A DNA stretch of 17,318 bases from a virus: the UHGV virus genome UHGV-0074612; one strand, given 5' to 3'. The notes below the pieces were generated by a model, which made no database searches, was not told where the DNA came from, and worked only from the letters and a program-made list of their open reading frames with translations. Below, piece by piece: positions 3,682-16,687 of this stretch; within the stretch, counting starts at the first letter, position 1, and each line of letters starts with the position of its first letter. Made by a program: the position numbers and the translations under genes.

Positions 3682-4352
3682 TGCTCCCCAAATACAAAAC
3701 CAATTTCAGCCAGTGCCTCGTCCATTTTTTCGATGAACTCTGGCACCATTTCGTCAAAACCAGCCATGTATTTTTCATCCCGCTCGACCACGACATAATG
3801 CAGGCCTTCACGCTTCATACGTGGGTCATAGTTGGCAAAGTACCAGGCATCTTTTCGCGTCGCCCACATGCTGAATTGCACCTGGGCCATGTAAGCTGAT
3901 TTTATTGCCTCGAAACCACCGAGCCGGAATTTCATGAAATCCCGGGAGGTAAACGGGCATTTCAGTTCAAGGCCGTTGCCGTCACTGCATAAACCATCGG
4001 GAGAGCAGGCGGTGCGCATACTTTCGTCGCGATAGATGATCGGGGATTCAATAACATTTACGCCGGAAGTGAACTCAAACAGGGTTCTGGCGTCGTTCTC
4101 GTACTGTTTTCCCCAGGCCAGCGCTTTAGCGTTAACTTCCGGAGCCACACCGGTGCAAACCTCAGCCAGCAGGGTGTGGAAGTAGGACATTTTCATGTCA
4201 GGCCACTTCTTTCCTGATCGGGGCTTTGCTATCACGTTGTGAACTTCTGAAGCGGTGATGACGCCGAGCCGTAATTTGTGCCATGCATCATCCCCCTGTT
4301 CGACAGCTCTCACGTCGATCCCGGTACGCTGCAGGATAATGTCCGGTGTCAT
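3672..4352 (-). CDS. exo: Lambda exonuclease (Red alpha)
   Basis: 226-aa [43 protein letters not shown]..., lambda Exo length and sequence as I recall; start overlaps the bet stop. Confidence 0.97.
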
Positions 4353-5134
4353 GCTGCCACCTTCTGCTCAGTGGCTTTCTGTTTCAGGAATCCGAGAGCT
4401 TTCACTGCTTCGACCTGTGTCAGTTCTGACGATGCGCGAATGTCGCGGCGAAATATCTGGGAACAGAGCGGCAATAAGTCGTCATCCCATGTTTTATCCA
4501 GGGCAATCAGCAGAGTGTTAATCTCCTGCATGGTTTCATCGTTAACCGGAGTGATGTCGCGTTCCGGCTGACGTTCTGCAGTGTATGCGGTATTTTCGAC
4601 AATGCGCTCGGCTTCATCCTTGTCATAGATACCAGCAAATCCGAAGGCCAGACGGGCACACTGAATCATGGCTTTATGACGTAACATCCGTTTGGGATGC
4701 GACTGCCACGGCCCCGTGATTTCTCTGCCTTCGCGGGTTTTGAATGGTTCGCGGCGGCATTCATCCATCCACTCGGTAACGCAGATCGGATGATTACGGT
4801 CCTTGCGGTAAATCCGGCATGTGCAGGATTCATTGTCCTGCTCAAAGTCCATGCCATCAAACTGCTGGTTTTCATTGATGATACGGGACCAGCCATCAAC
4901 GCCCACCACCGGAACGATGCCGTTCTGCTTGTCAGGGAAGGCGTAAATTTCTTTCGTCCACGGATTAAGGCCGTACTGGTTGGCGACGATCAACAATGCG
5001 ATGAACTGCGCATCGCTGGCATCGCCTTTAAATGCCGTCTGGCGAAGAGTGGTGATCAGTTCCTGTGGGTCGACAGAATCCATGCCGACACGTTCAGCCA
5101 GCTTCCCAGCCAGCGTTGCGAGTGCTGTACTCAT
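4349..5134 (-). CDS. bet: Single-strand annealing protein Bet (Red beta)
   Basis: 261-aa [53 protein letters not shown]..., lambda Bet length and sequence as I recall. Confidence 0.97.
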
Positions 5135-5139
5135 CCGTT

Positions 5140-5208
5140 TTATACCTCTGAATCAATATCAACCTGGTGGTGAGCAATGGTTTCAACCATGTACCGGATG
5201 TGTTCTGC
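5140..5208 (-). pseudogene. gam: 3'-terminal remnant of gam (last 22 codons plus stop)
   Basis: Minus strand encodes AEHIRYMVETIAHHQVDIDSEV then stop, 5 nt upstream of the bet ATG; matches the lambda Gam C-terminus from memory. Upstream codons (NVS...) diverge and a stop occurs at 5221-5223. Confidence 0.7.
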
Positions 5209-5228
5209 TACATTACTGAGCTAATAAC

Positions 5229-5260
5229 AGGCCTGCTGGTAATCGCAGGCCTTTTTATTT
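5229..5260 (+). terminator. Rho-independent terminator, lambda tR2-like
   Basis: 8-bp stem AGGCCTGC/GCAGGCCT (5229-5236/5245-5252), 8-nt loop, then TTTTTATTT; located just upstream of ninB as tR2 is in lambda. Confidence 0.75.
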
Positions 5261-5276
5261 GGGGGAGAGGGAAGTC

Positions 5277-5717
5277 ATGAAAAAACTAACCTTTGAAATT
5301 CGATCTCCAGCACATCAGCAAAACGCTATTCACGCAGTACAGCAAATCCTTCCAGACCCAACCAAACCAATCGTAGTAACCATTCAGGAACGCAACCGCA
5401 GCTTAGACCAAAACAGGAAGCTATGGGCCTGCTTAGGTGACGTCTCTCGTCAGGTTGAATGGCATGGTCGCTGGCTGGATGCAGAAAGCTGGAAGTGTGT
5501 GTTTACCGCAGCATTAAAGCAGCAGGATGTTGTTCCTAACCTTGCCGGGAATGGCTTTGTGGTAATAGGCCAGTCAACCAGCAGGATGCGTGTAGGCGAA
5601 TTTGCGGAGCTATTAGAGCTTATACAGGCATTCGGTACAGAGCGTGGCGTTAAGTGGTCAGACGAAGCGAGACTGGCTCTGGAGTGGAAAGCGAGATGGG
5701 GAGATCGGGCTGCATGA
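5277..5717 (+). CDS. ninB: NinB (Orf family recombination mediator)
   Basis: Track ORF 5259..5717; ATG at 5277 gives MKKLTFEIRSPAHQQNAIHAVQQILPDP..., lambda NinB-like, preceded by GGAGAGGG. Confidence 0.93.
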   Translation: MKKLTFEIRSPAHQQNAIHAVQQILPDPTKPIVVTIQERNRSLDQNRKLWACLGDVSRQVEWHGRWLDAESWKCVFTAALKQQDVVPNLAGNGFVVIGQSTSRMRVGEFAELLELIQAFGTERGVKWSDEARLALEWKARWGDRAA

Positions 5718-6241
5718 CTATCAAATCAAATACGCCAGCACACGACAAGGACTGCTGGCAAACGCCGCTTTGGCTTTTTGATGCACTGGATATTGAGTTT
5801 GGATTCTGGCTGGATTCGGCAGCGAGCGACAAAAATGCTCTGTGTGCTCACTGGCTAACTGAGGCCGACGACGCGCTCAATTCTGAGTGGGTAAGCCACG
5901 GTGCAATCTGGAATAACCCACCGTACAGCAATATCAGGCCGTGGGTGGAAAAAGCCGCTGAGCAGTGCATACAACAGCGACAGACGGTAGTTATGCTTGT
6001 GCCAGAGGATATGTCAGTCGGATGGTTCAGCAAGGCTCTGGAGAGTGTCGACGAAGTTCGCATTATCACTGATGGACGGATTAATTTTATCGAACCATCG
6101 ACAGGGCTGGAGAAGAAGGGAAACAGCAAAGGCTCCATGCTGCTGATTTGGCGACCGTTCATCAGTCCTCGACGGATGTTTACTACCGTATCCAAAGCGG
6201 CATTGATGGCGATCGGGCAGGGCGTCAGGAGGGCGGCATGA
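5714..6241 (+). CDS. Phage N6-adenine DNA methyltransferase (orphan, no cognate nuclease seen)
   Basis: Start ATGA overlaps the ninB stop; product [26 protein letters not shown]... with NPPY catalytic motif (WNNPPYS). No restriction endonuclease candidate nearby. Confidence 0.85.
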
Positions 6242-8121: not shown

Positions 8122-9204
8122 TTAGAACTGGTAAACCATACCTACAGCAACGATATCATCGGTAGCAACGCCAGATGCTTTCGTGAAATCGCTCTTATCA
8201 ATCAGGTTGATTTTGTAGTCAACAAAAGTGGACATATTTTTGTTGAAGTAATAGGTTGCACCTACATCAACATATTCAACCAGGTCCTGATCACCCCAAA
8301 CACCCAAGTCTTTTCCTTTAGAATGCAGGTAAGCAACGGATGGACGCAGGCCGAAGTCGAACTGATATTGTGCAACAGCTTCGAAGTTTTGTGCTTTGTT
8401 GGCAATATGGTTATTACCAAAAACAGTCATGTTCTGGGTTTCAGAATAGGTGGTGGCCAGATAGATGTTGTTCGCATCATATTTCAGACCAGCTGCCCAT
8501 ACTTCAGCATTTTGACCAGAAGCATTCAGACCGTTGTTACCGTAGATAACCTGATTATTAGTGCGATCAGATTTAGCATAGGTTGCACCCACGCCGAATC
8601 CTTCATACTCATAAGTAGTTGAGAAACCGAAACCATCGCCATTAGCTTCAGTTACTTCATTTCGGTCATTTTTGCCCTGATACTGAGCTGCAAAGTTCAG
8701 GCCATCAACCAGACCAAAGAAGTCGTTGTTACGATAAGTTGCAACACCTGTGGTGCGACCAGTCATGAATACATCTGTTTGGGTCCAGGTATCGCCACCG
8801 AATTCTGGCAGAACGTCGGTCCATGCACCGATGTCGTATGCTACACCGTAGTTACGGCCGTAATCGATGGAGCCGTAGTCACCGAATTTCAGGCCAGCGA
8901 AGGCAAGACGGGTTTTATCTTTGGAGGAACCTTGAGATTCAGCGCGGTTGCCTTTGAATTCATATTCCCACTGACCGAAACCAGTCAGTTGATCGTTGAT
9001 TTGGGTTTCACCTTTGAAGCCAAGACGGGCATAAGTAGTATCACCATCATCTGCATCATTAGAGGAGAAGTAGTGCTTAGCATTAACTTTCCCGTACAGA
9101 TCCAGCTTGTTACTGTCTTTATTATAAATTTCAGCTGCCTGAGCAGACATCGCCATCAGTACTGATGCAGCTACAGCAGAAATTGCCACTGTTAATTTTT
9201 TCAT
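8122..9204 (-). CDS. nmpC: OmpC/OmpF-family general porin, prophage-encoded (NmpC/Lc-like)
   Basis: 360-aa ORF with signal peptide [23 protein letters not shown] then AEIYNKD..., C-terminal VGMVYQF ending in Phe; located between Q and the holin on the opposite strand, as nmpC is in DLP12. Confidence 0.93.
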
Positions 9205-9632
9205 CGTGAGCCCTTTTTTTTGAACTATTATTAAAAAATGATGTCACTGCGCGATAAATATTCATCTAATCAATGTGAATATTTCAAGATGTAAGTTTTG
9301 GTTTCTCGTTTGATTTGTGAAGTAGATCTCTATTTTTATCTGAACTTTTTTCTATCGAATCCTATTCATGGCTCTTGACTGAATAAAAATAAATCTATTA
9401 GCCAATTTATATTAATGGCTGTTATTTATAAGTGCTCTATAATTTGAAGGTTCAATTTAAATTGACTAAAAATAACGCTGGAAATTATTTGTTGGTTATT
9501 TGTTGAGATTTGCTTATGTATTTGTAGTGGTGTTTTCAATACTCGGTAGCATTCTCGCAAATATCATTTAGTGGTTTACGTACGTAAAAAATTGGTTATG
9601 CTGTTAAGAGTGGTTACTTCGTCACACAGCTT

Positions 9633-9666
9633 AAACCCGCCGTCGAGCGGGTTTTTCCATTTTTTG
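9633..9666 (+). terminator. Rho-independent terminator inside the porin-holin intergenic region (tR'-like)
   Basis: 8-bp stem AAACCCGC/GCGGGTTT (9633-9640/9647-9654), 6-nt loop, then TTCCATTTTTTG. No plus-strand gene ends upstream of it. Confidence 0.7.
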
Positions 9667-9777
9667 AGTCTCGATATTAGCTGATAACCCAATACCTGAG
9701 TTATTCACTGACTCCGAGTCTGTTACGTTTCGTAGTATTCCCTCAATTTACACCCGCTTTGTCTGCGAGGTGGGGTT

Positions 9778-12290: not shown

Positions 12291-12498
12291 AAAGGATAAA
12301 GGCATTCAAGCCTGACACATCATGCGCTGTATCGTCGCCGTATTCCCGTATTAACAGAGACCGTAGCCCGACGGGGAACTCCTTCTGCGCGAGTGTGCGG
12401 GAATAATCAAAAACGATGCACACCGGGGTTACCGGGTACACATATTTCATCATGCCAGCGAGTCCGGTTCTGGCACGGAAGAAACCGGACGTTATGAT

Positions 12499-12909
12499 TT
12501 AGTGCGGAAATATTTGTGTAGTGTTCTGAATGTTCTCAGTAAAGAGTAATGAATTATCAAAGGTATAGTAATACCTTTTGTTTTCGTGGATATTTGTAAT
12601 CCATCTGAAAACCCCTGCTGTAGCAAGATTTTTCCTGTATTCGTAAAATGATAACTCTCCTGATTTGAATCCTTTTAAGGTGGCTTCTATAAGGCATTTA
12701 TTTTTTGAAAATCTTACATTTACAACCTTACCCTGTCCTTTTATTAAAACCGTATTATCGTTTTCAAGAACAAGATGAATATTCTCTGTGGCTAAATAGT
12801 AAATGTAATGTGAGACATTGTGACGTTTTAGTTCAGAATAAAACCAGTGATAGTTTAAATTATTTCGCACTTTATCGAATATTTGTTTAAAAATGGCAAC
12901 CTGAGCCAT
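12499..12909 (-). CDS. YbcV-like (DUF1398-like) protein, 136 aa, AT-rich
   Basis: Track ORF 12499..12924; ATG at 12909 preceded by GAAGGT gives [17 protein letters not shown]..., matching my recollection of DLP12 YbcV and its 136-aa length. Gene is markedly AT-rich relative to its flanks. Confidence 0.75.
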
Positions 12910-12966
12910 TGTAGTACCTTCCATGTGATATGAGGGGGCGTAGTCTGCACGATTATCTAAATTGCT

Positions 12967-13200
12967 TCAATCTGGTCTAACCTGTTTTCTGAGCAATTCA
13001 GTAATGTCACTCTTTTCTTTGTTTGCTTCAGGCGAAACTCTTTTTTCTGAGCACAGTCTCCGGCGGCAGGCTTCAATGACCCAGGCTGAGAAATTCCCGG
13101 ACCCTTTTTGAACAAGAGCGATGTTAATTTGTTCAATCATTTGGTTAGGAAAGCGGATGTTGCGGGTTGTTGTTCTGCGGGTTCTGTTCTTCGTTGACAT
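12967..13200 (-). CDS. YlcI-like small protein with putative ribbon-helix-helix fold (77 aa)
   Basis: Co-directional and 42 bp upstream of the YbcV-like gene; basic N-terminus then RNIRFPNQMIEQINIALVQKGSGNFSAWVIEACRRRL, which reads like a strand-helix-helix unit. Confidence 0.6.
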   Translation of the reverse strand: MSTKNRTRRTTTRNIRFPNQMIEQINIALVQKGSGNFSAWVIEACRRRLCSEKRVSPEANKEKSDITELLRKQVRPD

Positions 13201-13379
13201 GAGGTTGCCCCGTATTCAGTGTCGCTGATTTGTATTGTCTGAAGTTGTTTTTACGTTAAGTTGATGCAGATCAATTAATACGATACCTGCGTCATAATTG
13301 ATTATTTGACGTGGTTTGATGGCGTAGATGCACGTTGTGACATGTAGATGATAATTATTATCATTTTGCGGGTCCTTTC

Positions 13380-13445
13380 CGGCGATCCGACAGGTTACGG
13401 GGCGGAAGGCGCGCGGGTTTTCGCTATTTATGAAAATTTTCCGGG
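13380..13445. other. cos site region with cosN-like 12-mer at 13400-13411
   Basis: GCGATCCGACAGGTTACG + GGGCGGAAGGCG + CGCGGGTTTTCGCTATTTATGAAAATTTTCCGG; both flanks match the lambda right and left ends as I recall, but the 12-mer differs from lambda GGGCGGCGACCT at its last six positions. Confidence 0.65.
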
Positions 13446-13508
13446 GAAAATCATGTCGGTACTTCTCGAACATAACTATTTGTTTTTTCTAATATCGAAT
13501 CCGTAAAA

Positions 13509-13563
13509 GGTCCGACATGAAAACGCCTAAAAAAGTCATTTTCGGGCACTTTCATGTCGGACC
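13509..13563. repeat. Perfect 14-bp inverted repeat with 27-bp A-rich spacer, in cosB position
   Basis: GGTCCGACATGAAA (13509-13522) and TTTCATGTCGGACC (13550-13563); sits between the cosN-like site and the Nu1-like start codon at 13588. Confidence 0.7.
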
Positions 13564-13587
13564 CTGTGTTTGTTGTTAGACTGTTTC

Positions 13588-13704
13588 ATGAAGGTTAATA
13601 AAAAGAAACTTGCCGAAATTTTCAACGTGGATCCGCGAACGATTGAACGCTGGCAGTCTCAGGGACTCCCTTGCGTCTCCGGAGGTGGCAGCGGGCCATC
13701 ATGA
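13588..13704 (+). pseudogene. Terminase small subunit (Nu1/gp1-like), N-terminal 38-codon stub
   Basis: [38 protein letters not shown] then stop; resembles the Nu1 N-terminal DNA-binding segment (lambda MEVNKKQLADIFGASIRTIQNWQEQGMPVLRGGG). The frame ends where terminase A homology begins. Confidence 0.75.
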
Positions 13705-14570
13705 ATGCGATGGGCAGTGACTACATCCGCGAGGTGAATGTGGTGAAGTCTGCCCGTGTTGGTTATTCCAAAATGCTGCTGGGTGTTTATGCCTACTTCA
13801 TAGAGCATAAGCAGCGCAACACCCTTATCTGGTTGCCGACGGATGGTGATGCCGAGAACTTTATGAAAACCCACGTTGAGCCGACTATTCGTGATATTCC
13901 GTCGCTGCTGGCGCTGGCCCCGTGGTATGGCAAAAAGCACCGGGATAACACGCTCACCATGAAGCGTTTCACTAATGGGCGTGGCTTCTGGTGCCTGGGC
14001 GGTAAAGCGGCAAAAAACTACCGTGAAAAGTCGGTGGATGTGGCGGGTTATGATGAACTTGCTGCTTTTGATGATGATATTGAACAGGAAGGCTCTCCGA
14101 CGTTCCTGGGTGACAAGCGTATTGAAGGCTCGGTCTGGCCAAAGTCCATCCGTGGCTCCACGCCCAAAGTGAGAGGCACCTGCCAGATTGAGCGTGCAGC
14201 CAGTGAATCCCCGCATTTTATGCGTTTTCATGTTGCCTGCCCGCACTGCGGGGAGGAGCAGTATCTTAAATTTGGCGACAAAGAGACGCCGTTTGGCCTC
14301 AAATGGACGCCGGATGACCCCTCCAGCGTGTTTTATCTCTGCGAGCATAATGCCTGCGTCATCCGCCAGCAGGAGCTGGACTTTACTGATGCCCGTTATA
14401 TCTGCGAAAAGACCGGGATCTGGACCCGTGATGGCATTCTCTGGTTTTCGTCATCCGGTGAAGAGATTGAGCCGCCGGACAGTGTGACCTTTCACATCTG
14501 GACGGCGTACAGCCCGTTCACCACCTGGGTGCAGATTGTCAAAGACTGGATGAAGACGAAAGGGGATACC
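13689..14570 (+). pseudogene. Terminase large subunit A, internal fragment (about residues 58-350 of lambda gpA)
   Basis: Track ORF 13671..14630; [50 protein letters not shown]... through ...[14 protein letters not shown] is lambda gpA as I recall. It lacks the gpA N-terminus and C-terminal half; the frame then runs into J-derived sequence out of frame. Confidence 0.85.
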
Positions 14571-14571
14571 C

Positions 14572-15883
14572 GAACACGGCACTGGTCGGCGTGCAGGTGG
14601 ACTCGGAGCAGTTCGGCAGCCAGCAGGTGAGCCGTAATTATCATCTGCGCGGGCGCATTCTGCAGGTGCCGTCGAACTATAACCCGCAGACGCGGCAATA
14701 CAGCGGTATCTGGGATGGAACGTTTAAGCCAGCATACAGCAACAACATGGCCTGGTGTCTGTGGGATATGCTGACCCATCCGCGCTACGGCATGGGGAAA
14801 CGTCTTGGTGCAGCAGATGTGGATAAATGGACGCTGTATGTCATCGGCCAGTACTGCGACCAGTTGGTACCGAATGGTTTTGGCGGCACGGAGCCGCGCA
14901 TCACCTGTAATGCCTGGCTGACCACACAGCGTAAGGCGTGGGATGTGCTCAGTGATTTCTGCTCGGCGATGCGCTGTATGCCGGTATGGAACGGGCAGAC
15001 GCTGACGTTCGTGCAGGACCGACCATCAGATAAGGTGTGGACCTATAACCGCAGTAATGTGGTGATGCCGGATGATGGCGCGCCGTTCCGCTACAGCTTC
15101 AGCGCCCTGAAGGACCGCCATAATGCCGTTGAGGTGAACTGGATTGACCCGAACAACGGCTGGGAGACGGCGACAGAGCTTGTTGAAGATACGCAGGCCA
15201 TTGCCCGTTACGGTCGTAATGTCACGAAGATGGATGCCTTTGGCTGTACCAGCCGGGGGCAGGCACACCGCGCCGGGCTGTGGCTGATTAAAACGGAACT
15301 GCTGGAGACGCAGACCGTGGATTTCAGCGTGGGTGCTGAAGGGCTTCGCCATGTACCGGGCGATGTCATTGAAATCTGCGATGATGACTATGCCGGTATC
15401 AGCACCGGTGGTCGCGTGCTGGCGGTGAACAGCCAGACCCGGACGCTGACGCTCGACCGTGAAATCACGCTGCCATCTTCCGGCACCACGCTGATAAGCC
15501 TGGTTGACGGGCAGGGGAGTCCGGTCAGCGTGGAGGTTCAGTCCGTCACCGACGGACTTAAGGTGAAAGTGAACCGGGTTCCTGACGGCGTTGCAGAATA
15601 CAGTGTGTGGGGGCTGAAGTTGCCGACGTTGCGTCAGCGCCTGTTCCGCTGTGTGAGTATCCGTGAGAACGATGACGGCACGTATGCCATCACTGCCGTG
15701 CAGCATGTACCGGAAAAAGAAGCCATCGTGGATAACGGGGCGCACTTTGACGGCGACCAGAGCGGCACGGTGAATGATGTCACGCCGCCAGCGGTGCAGC
15801 ACCTGACTGCCGAAGTCACCGCAGACAGCGGGGAATATCAGGTGCTGGCGCGCTGGGACACGCCGAAGGTGGTGAAGGGGGTG
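14572..15883 (+). pseudogene. Tail tip protein J, internal fragment
   Basis: Track ORF 14591..16687 begins at a GTG inside J-like sequence ([28 protein letters not shown]...). J homology runs to ...[12 protein letters not shown]; the J N-terminal third and C-terminal receptor-binding region are absent. Confidence 0.85.
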
Positions 15884-16687
15884 AAGGCACATTACAGAAA
15901 TGGAGGTCTGTTCTACCGTTCCTCAAGAGATGGCTATGGTTTTGAGGAAGACTGGGCAGAAGTTTATACCTCGAAAAATCTTCCACCAGAAAGCTACCCA
16001 GTCGGCGCACCAATCCCGTGGCCATCAGATACCGTTCCGTCTGGTTATGCCCTGATGCAGGGGCAGACTTTTGACAAATCTGCATACCCGAAACTTGCAG
16101 CCGCTTATCCGTCAGGCGTGATCCCTGATATGCGTGGCTGGACGATTAAGGGCAAACCTGCCAGTGGTCGCGCCGTATTGTCTCAGGAACAGGACGGCAT
16201 TAAATCGCACACCCACAGCGCCAGCGCATCCAGTACGGATTTGGGGACGAAAACCACATCGTCGTTTGATTACGGAACCAAATCCACGAATAACACCGGG
16301 GCGCATACCCATAGTATTAGCGGGACCGCAAATAGTGCCGGCGCGCACCAACACAAGAGTTCCGGTGCATTTGGTGGCACGAACACGAGCATTTTCCCTA
16401 ATGGTTATACCGCGATTTCAAATCCAAGCGCGGGGATTATGAGCACAACAAGCGGTAGTGGTCAGACTCGTAATGCAGGGAAGACATCATCAGATGGTGC
16501 TCATACCCACTCGCTGTCCGGCACTGCTGCAAGCGCAGGCGCACATGCACATACTGTCGGTATTGGTGCTCATACGCACTCCGTTGCGATTGGCTCACAT
16601 GGACACACCATCACCGTTAACGCTGCGGGTAACGCGGAAAACACCGTCAAAAACATCGCATTTAACTATATTGTGAGGCTTGCATAA
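15884..16687 (+). pseudogene. Side tail fibre (Stf-like) C-terminal region, fused in frame to the J fragment
   Basis: ...[45 protein letters not shown]... with repeated Gly/His boxes ([30 protein letters not shown]) and C-terminus [11 protein letters not shown], typical of lambda Stf and T4 gp37-type fibre tips. Confidence 0.8.

Follow-up and report, generated by a model that had tools for sequence, protein, structure and literature searches.

Do the two small genes that lie side by side next to the cos region of this lambda-like prophage form a toxin-antitoxin (TA) or defence module, as had been proposed from the sequence alone, or are they independent genes that have become neighbours? The window, that is the whole stretch of 17,318 nucleotides analysed, is a deleted lambdoid prophage, as judged from its gene content: integrase, Ea22-like, exonuclease, RecT, Dam, NinX, porin, lysozyme/Rz, KilA-N, DUF1398, ylcI, cos and Nu1–A, in that order. 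The reading that we favour, at a probability of roughly 0.7, is that the locus is a Qin-type accessory segment holding two independent genes, a candidate regulator (YlcI) and an optional DUF1398 cassette. The ynfO–ydfO / ylcI–ybcV locus is already catalogued in lambda-like prophages and is not a new TA or defence module. The practical value of the analysis lies in a corrected annotation of the ynfO–ydfO locus and a corrected expectation of what it does.

The two genes and their base composition

Both ORFs are real genes on the minus strand, and the original observation of two genes is confirmed:

12499-12909, minus strand: DUF1398 gene (ybcV/ydfO/lambda p78 family), 136 aa
12967-13200, minus strand: ylcI/ynfO gene, 77 aa (PF13132, NF041551)

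The two families had been guessed correctly. The DUF1398 ORF matches PF07166 over profile positions 1-119 of 119 (E 3e-43; 147 bits against a 22-bit cutoff), and the 77-aa ORF matches both PF13132, DUF3950 (E 2e-20; 72.8 bits against a cutoff of 25), and the NCBIfam model YlcI_YnfO_N, NF041551 (35.2 bits against a cutoff of 30). Counted from an upstream ATG at 12924, the DUF1398 ORF (12499-12924) has 141 aa. The most likely start is, however, the second ATG at 12909, which gives 136 aa and is favoured by the sequence GGAAGG 7 nt upstream and by the use of the same start in the PGAP and K-12 annotations.

The two genes differ in base composition. The DUF1398 gene has 31.4% GC (GC3 30.7%), a value as low as which occurs in only 1.2% of stretches of the same size, against 47.9% for the window; ylcI, with 44.4%, falls at the 28th percentile. 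The claim that both genes are much more AT-rich than their surroundings therefore stands for DUF1398 and falls for ylcI. The mobile or foreign, moron-like character attributed to the AT-rich DUF1398 gene is consistent with the data. Like the bor/lom-type morons of lambda, this gene is a short element of deviant GC content that related phages may or may not carry; it has promoter-like sites of its own and is oriented against the late operon. However, the products of bor and lom have been identified, as an outer-membrane lipoprotein and a beta-barrel, whereas DUF1398 is a soluble protein. In lambda and DLP12, bor lies downstream of the DUF1398 gene; in the window a KilA-N gene is found there instead. 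A circuit of the Arc/Mnt–ant type involving this nearby KilA-N gene was considered and rejected, since lambda has ylcI but no gene of this kind, and since the orientation is unlike that of P22 immI.

Separate histories of ylcI and the DUF1398 gene

The layout of the window is that of the K-12 Qin prophage. In the Qin pair ynfO–ydfO (b4533–b1549), the order, strand, sizes (77 and 136 aa) and 57-bp gap are as in the window, and nohA, which is Nu1-like, lies 389 bp from ynfO, a distance equal to that in the window. YnfO is 97% identical between the two and the region upstream of ynfO is 100% identical, whereas the DUF1398 protein of the window shares 75% identity with Qin YdfO and its gene 63-67% DNA identity in the middle. 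Over the whole segment, DNA identity is 97-100% across ynfO and its upstream region and 63-90% inside DUF1398; the two genes have different histories.

The right end of lambda and DLP12 carry a homologous DUF1398 gene with its PdhR-type box, the ylcI N-domain and the cos flank with the palindrome discussed below. Their order differs: ylcI is followed by ybcW/p79 on the opposite strand, then by ybcV/p78 and bor. The YlcI of lambda and DLP12 has 64 aa, with a tail unlike that of the 77-aa YnfO of the window; the lambda ORF, complement(48109..48303), also of 64 aa, is unannotated in both NC_001416.1 and J02459. Two blocks are common to the window and lambda/DLP12, namely DUF1398 with about 75 bp upstream (to 12983-12987) and ylcI codons 1-54 with the cos flank (from 13038). 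Between them lies a short junction, whose breakpoints (12983/13038) were placed by blastn of the window against HK630/lambda and DLP12:

12984-13037, 54 bp: junction replacing the 613-bp ybcW/p79 cassette and encoding part of the YnfO tail

The YnfO tail is thus encoded partly by junction DNA and partly by the region upstream of DUF1398, and the adjacency of ylcI and DUF1398 in the window results from the missing ybcW cassette. From RNA-seq of K-12, ybcW and ylcI are reported to be a convergent pair with overlapping transcripts (PMC12288877).

The distribution of the two genes points in the same direction. When 12300-13600 was searched by megablast, 4796 of the 5426 complete E. coli genomes contained matching DNA, as did 178 phage records, lambda included. 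By tblastn, YlcI was found in 152 phage records and DUF1398 in 43, so that at least 109 YlcI-bearing phages, Stx-converting phages among them, are without DUF1398. For example, BP-4795 carries ylcI between Rz and HNH–TerS–TerL, the start codons of HNH and ylcI being 41 bp apart, and has no DUF1398. At 160 IMG/VR loci, wherever the gene divergent from ylcI on its upstream side could be assigned, it was a packaging gene, either Nu1 or HNH plus TerS. This applies to about nine loci in ten, and most of the others have too little upstream DNA for an assignment. On the other side, ylcI is followed by DUF1398 at some loci and immediately by Rz at the rest. The position of ylcI is fixed at the boundary of the packaging module, across two unrelated terminase types.

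Distant homologues of DUF1398 are present at five chromosomal loci in Raoultella, Kluyvera, Pseudocitrobacter and another Enterobacteriaceae genome; these loci come from a narrower alignment, to which they are 50-58% identical. Their neighbours include umuDC, a POT transporter, carbonic anhydrase, DinI, a GGDEF protein and PTS genes, and a search by tblastn and with the family HMM found no YlcI-like ORF within 4 kb of any of the five. Two of the four chromosomal homologues with both flanks lie beside SOS-regulon genes (umuDC and dinI), which may be coincidence. Thus ylcI and DUF1398 are not a unit; they are inherited independently.

As read from the sequence, the DUF1398 gene has its own control region, composed of a promoter-like site and a conserved PdhR-type box:

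12952-12979, minus strand: promoter-like site for DUF1398 (TAGACC, 16 nt, GATAAT; 9 of 12 consensus matches)
12970-12986: PdhR-box-like sequence ATCTGGTCTAACCTGTT, overlapping the -35 element, 62 bp upstream of the DUF1398 start

The promoter-like site, which falls partly within the end of the ylcI coding sequence and partly in the short gap between the genes, was identified only by its match to the consensus; such sites are no more frequent in the region than in shuffled sequence. The PdhR-type box, too, is a match at the level of sequence. The core of the box, TCTGGTCT[A/G]ACC, is kept 62-63 bp upstream of ybcV (DLP12), ydfO (Qin) and lambda p78. The DLP12 copy is a SELEX PdhR site, and ybcV mRNA is 10-fold lower in a pdhR mutant (PMC7660256).

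These observations bear on the proposal of a type II TA system, in which YnfO would be a ribbon-helix-helix (RHH) antitoxin and autorepressor and DUF1398 the toxin, the two being co-transcribed from near the palindrome. The locus resembles type II TA operons with RHH antitoxins (ParDE, RelBE and MazEF-mt types) in having a small putative RHH gene directly upstream. Its gene order fits an antitoxin-first operon, and the 57-bp gap of the Qin-type layout would still allow co-transcription; yet DUF1398 has the conserved box and promoter-like site described above. Moreover, the linkage that characterises such operons is not conserved: the two genes are not co-inherited, chromosomal DUF1398 genes have no partner, and an opposite-strand gene separates the pair in lambda and DLP12. 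The YnfO tail is the same as that of Qin, although DUF1398 differs by 25%, and part of this tail is junction DNA. Over-expression of ybcV (PMC2853380) and of YdfO (PMC4077768) has been reported with non-lethal phenotypes, and the DUF1398 fold is not toxin-like. A TA system of this kind is extremely unlikely. The TA or defence reading of the pair fails on conserved linkage, its one testable defining feature, and nothing positive speaks for it.

The DUF1398 protein and the defence question

DUF1398 shares the fold of a solved member of the family, YdfO (2HH8). The protein is soluble, its alpha/beta fold is duplicated internally and carries no catalytic signature, and no likeness of this fold to any known toxin was found. 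Matches to an anthranilate synthase model (NCBIfam) and to HEPN_AbiA_CTD (Pfam) were discarded, both being far below the cutoffs of those models. Neither of the names given to the family, 'head protein' (PHROG 413, RefSeq) and 'envelope protein', found support in this analysis; that of lambda p78, called 'head protein' by RefSeq, looks propagated from PHROG 413.

The idea that DUF1398 might be an anti-phage defence or superinfection-exclusion moron acting in the lysogen, either alone or under the control of YlcI, draws on its position in a moron region beside bor-type genes, antisense to late transcription. It also draws on the character of the gene as an AT-rich mobile cassette, in which the middle segment changes more rapidly than the rest (pN/pS 0.27-0.50) and shows mosaicism relative to Qin. 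However, pN/pS for DUF1398 is 0.24-0.43, which indicates purifying selection and stays below 1. Stand-alone chromosomal homologues occur in non-mobile contexts, and literature searches found no link of the family to defence. A search of PADLOC-DB v2 gave no significant match, with none for YlcI and, for DUF1398, a best hit to Csx23 that is at the level of chance (E 0.025, 12.6 bits). A defence function for DUF1398 is therefore improbable, and the original proposal of a two-gene TA or defence module is not supported, given the absence of co-inheritance, the intervening gene in lambda and DLP12, the separate control of DUF1398 and the PADLOC result taken together.

In the literature on both families, only expression and screen data were found, and no mechanism. 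The gene ydfO is strongly induced by ionic liquid, and over-expression of YdfO reportedly raises resistance to H2O2 (PMC4077768). ybcV is up-regulated in an evolved sabinene-tolerant strain (PMC7181518), and an ASKA clone over-expressing ybcV grew, with altered glycogen content (PMC2853380). A role of DUF1398 in stress is suggested by these inductions, by ionic liquid and in the sabinene-tolerant strain, and by the cited H2O2 phenotype.

The favoured reading, that of two independent genes in a Qin-type accessory segment, can be put in mechanistic terms as follows. The segment occupies the interval between the lysis genes and cos, with both genes read leftward, against the late operon. YlcI would be a transcriptional regulator expressed from the resident prophage, with a target that is probably not specifically DUF1398. 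DUF1398 is an optional AT-rich cassette with its own promoter region and PdhR-type box, and its product may be a lysogenic-conversion or stress-related binding protein.

YlcI, the palindrome and the cos flank

The conserved part of YlcI is its N-terminal domain:

13051-13200, minus strand: DUF3950 domain, candidate Arc-like RHH (codons 1-50; codons 51-77 form a variable tail)

YlcI is a small basic protein. Its residues 1-50 are nearly invariant across lambdoid phages, whereas the tail varies. The pN/pS ratio of the N-domain, calculated against the BP-4795 lineage, is 0.10-0.14 at a pS of about 0.5, and this shows selection on the protein itself, beyond the conservation of DNA near cos. A second subfamily of 67 aa, about 38% identical, occurs across Enterobacterales, and R16, F17, P18, N36, F37, S38, W40 and C45 are invariant in both subfamilies.

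The 77-aa protein had been read as an RHH DNA binder. In favour of this reading, YlcI is similar in size to Arc and Mnt, the RHH repressors of P22, and displays a similar pattern: a basic N-arm, an N-x-R-[FW]-P strand, a helix, a G-x-S…N/S loop and a second helix. The AF2 model has an extended N-terminus followed by two helices (pLDDT 69). The alignment of YlcI 12-36 on Arc 6-30 by hhalign is in the RHH register but weak (P 0.007, probability 5.5%), and that with Mnt has a probability of 0.3%. Against it, Foldseek gave no matches for the model in the PDB, phmmer and hmmsearch with YlcI and its profiles gave only chance matches to PDB sequences, and none of the Pfam RHH families matched at E <= 10. 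That the 50-residue N-domain forms an Arc-like RHH DNA-binding dimer is plausible, and in our view likely, although the statistical support is weak.

As to the operator on which such a protein might act, a near-palindrome upstream of ylcI had been put forward. The features of this region are:

13270-13282 and 13290-13302: imperfect inverted repeat ATCAATTAATACG / CGTCATAATTGAT, 13 nt with a 7-nt spacer, overlapping the near-palindrome
13290-13311: near-palindrome CGTCATAATTGATTATTTGACG, ending 89 nt upstream of the ylcI ATG
13370-13411: cos region, with cosQ-like GGGTCCT at 13370-13376, the nick at 13399/13400 and a predicted cohesive end GGGCGGAAGGCG

The near-palindrome had been located at 13297-13318; its actual position is 7 bases away. 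The perfect inverted repeat in it comprises only 5 bp, around 12 AT-rich bases, and the pattern is rare in shuffled sequence (0.09 expected), in a test that is post hoc. The imperfect repeat that overlaps it (13270-13302) is complementary at 11 of 13 positions (85%). A consensus promoter scan revealed no convincing sigma-70 promoter for ylcI.

The palindrome lies 89-110 bp to the left of the cosN nick, the position of which was set by the end of the lambda record J02459 in the alignment (window position 13399). The assignments of cosQ and cosN at 13370-13411 follow the arrangement in lambda, where the two lie within roughly 30 bp, and the palindrome falls outside them. Alignment to the right and left ends of lambda did not place it within any defined cos subsite. 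It is present in 110 of 110 Nu1-type loci, always 89 nt from the ylcI ATG, and missing from 36 of 36 loci in which the same YlcI domain abuts HNH-TerS. In 84 distinct Nu1-type sequences, conservation is 94-100% all the way from cos to ylcI codon 50, with the palindrome no different from its flanks; in seven of the 84, changes break one arm without compensation in the other. The restriction of the palindrome to Nu1-type loci, together with conservation of the whole block, places it in the lambda-type cos flank. Its proposed role as the YlcI operator is not supported: it travels with the cos/Nu1 block (110/110 against 0/36) and not with ylcI, and the changes in its arms are uncompensated. In lambda-type phages, the palindrome may have a local role.

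Two minor features of the cos flank are worth recording. The predicted cohesive end at 13400-13411 is GGGCGGAAGGCG here and GGGCGGCGACCT in lambda, and the lambda version is found in most related viral contigs. An ORF of 85 aa (13216-13473, minus strand), annotated in phage ev099 as the hypothetical protein gp73, runs across the cos nick. Since no Pfam family matches it and its sequence would be severed in the DNA of the virion, it is probably not a gene.

The fixed position of ylcI raises the possibility that YlcI acts on the packaging or late region, either by repressing or blocking read-through into the terminase genes in the lysogen or by binding near cos, with DUF1398 as a passenger. In favour of this, ylcI stays beside packaging genes whichever of two unrelated terminase types they belong to, purifying selection on its N-domain is strong, and the sister subfamily is the only counter-oriented gene in an int–alpA–primase–capsid satellite operon. 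However, the two terminase contexts have unrelated DNA upstream and no visible operator in common, and the satellite subfamily does not lie beside packaging genes. Moreover, the right end of lambda is dispensable in the laboratory. An action of this kind is decidedly improbable.

The 67-aa subfamily is of interest in its own right. It is the sole opposite-strand gene inside PICI-type satellites with the arrangement int–alpA–(AntA)–primase–capsid, and is a candidate regulator of these elements. In some satellite records the gene is masked by a probably spurious antisense ORF of 324 aa. A broader proposal is that YlcI is an unrecognised Arc-like repressor of quiescent lambdoid prophages, lambda included, and of PICI-like satellites, encoded in both as the lone counter-oriented gene and silencing the neighbouring lytic-mode operon. 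This too is unlikely; if true, late and packaging genes would be kept off in phages and the early operon in satellites. A clear DNA target and regulatory role for YlcI would close a minor gap in the knowledge of a phage that has been studied very thoroughly.

The prophage of the window looks defective, as judged from its damaged terminase region (13570-16687). The Nu1 frame is cut short after 44 aa (13570-13704), and gpA-like sequence follows in an ORF that begins at 13671, so that Nu1 and the beginning of A seem to have been fused or deleted; the gpA frame is itself split (13671-14630 and 14591-16687). Dam methylase and NinX (5134-6241) come almost immediately after RecT (4349-5134), and no genes for immunity or replication were seen in the interval, a further indication that the prophage is heavily deleted. 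A porin gene on the minus strand in the region 8122-9750 (360 aa; Porin_1, E 4e-152) appears to be another moron-like cassette, one of the nmpC/ompD type. The region upstream of it is the most AT-rich stretch of the window, with 28-31% GC around 9150-9600.

Finally, lambda-type sequences turned up in unexpected database entries. Many ENA contigs of about 3.5 kb contain error-ridden variants of YlcI and DUF1398, and GenBank records named 'Escherichia phage Lambda' exist with lengths of 3.35-3.46 kb; these contigs and short records look like the lambda right-end control amplicon of nanopore sequencing. Lambda-type sequence is also present in a 'Campylobacter phage CJLB-4' record and in proteins attributed to Staphylococcus, Bacillus and a spider, where it is likely to represent contamination.
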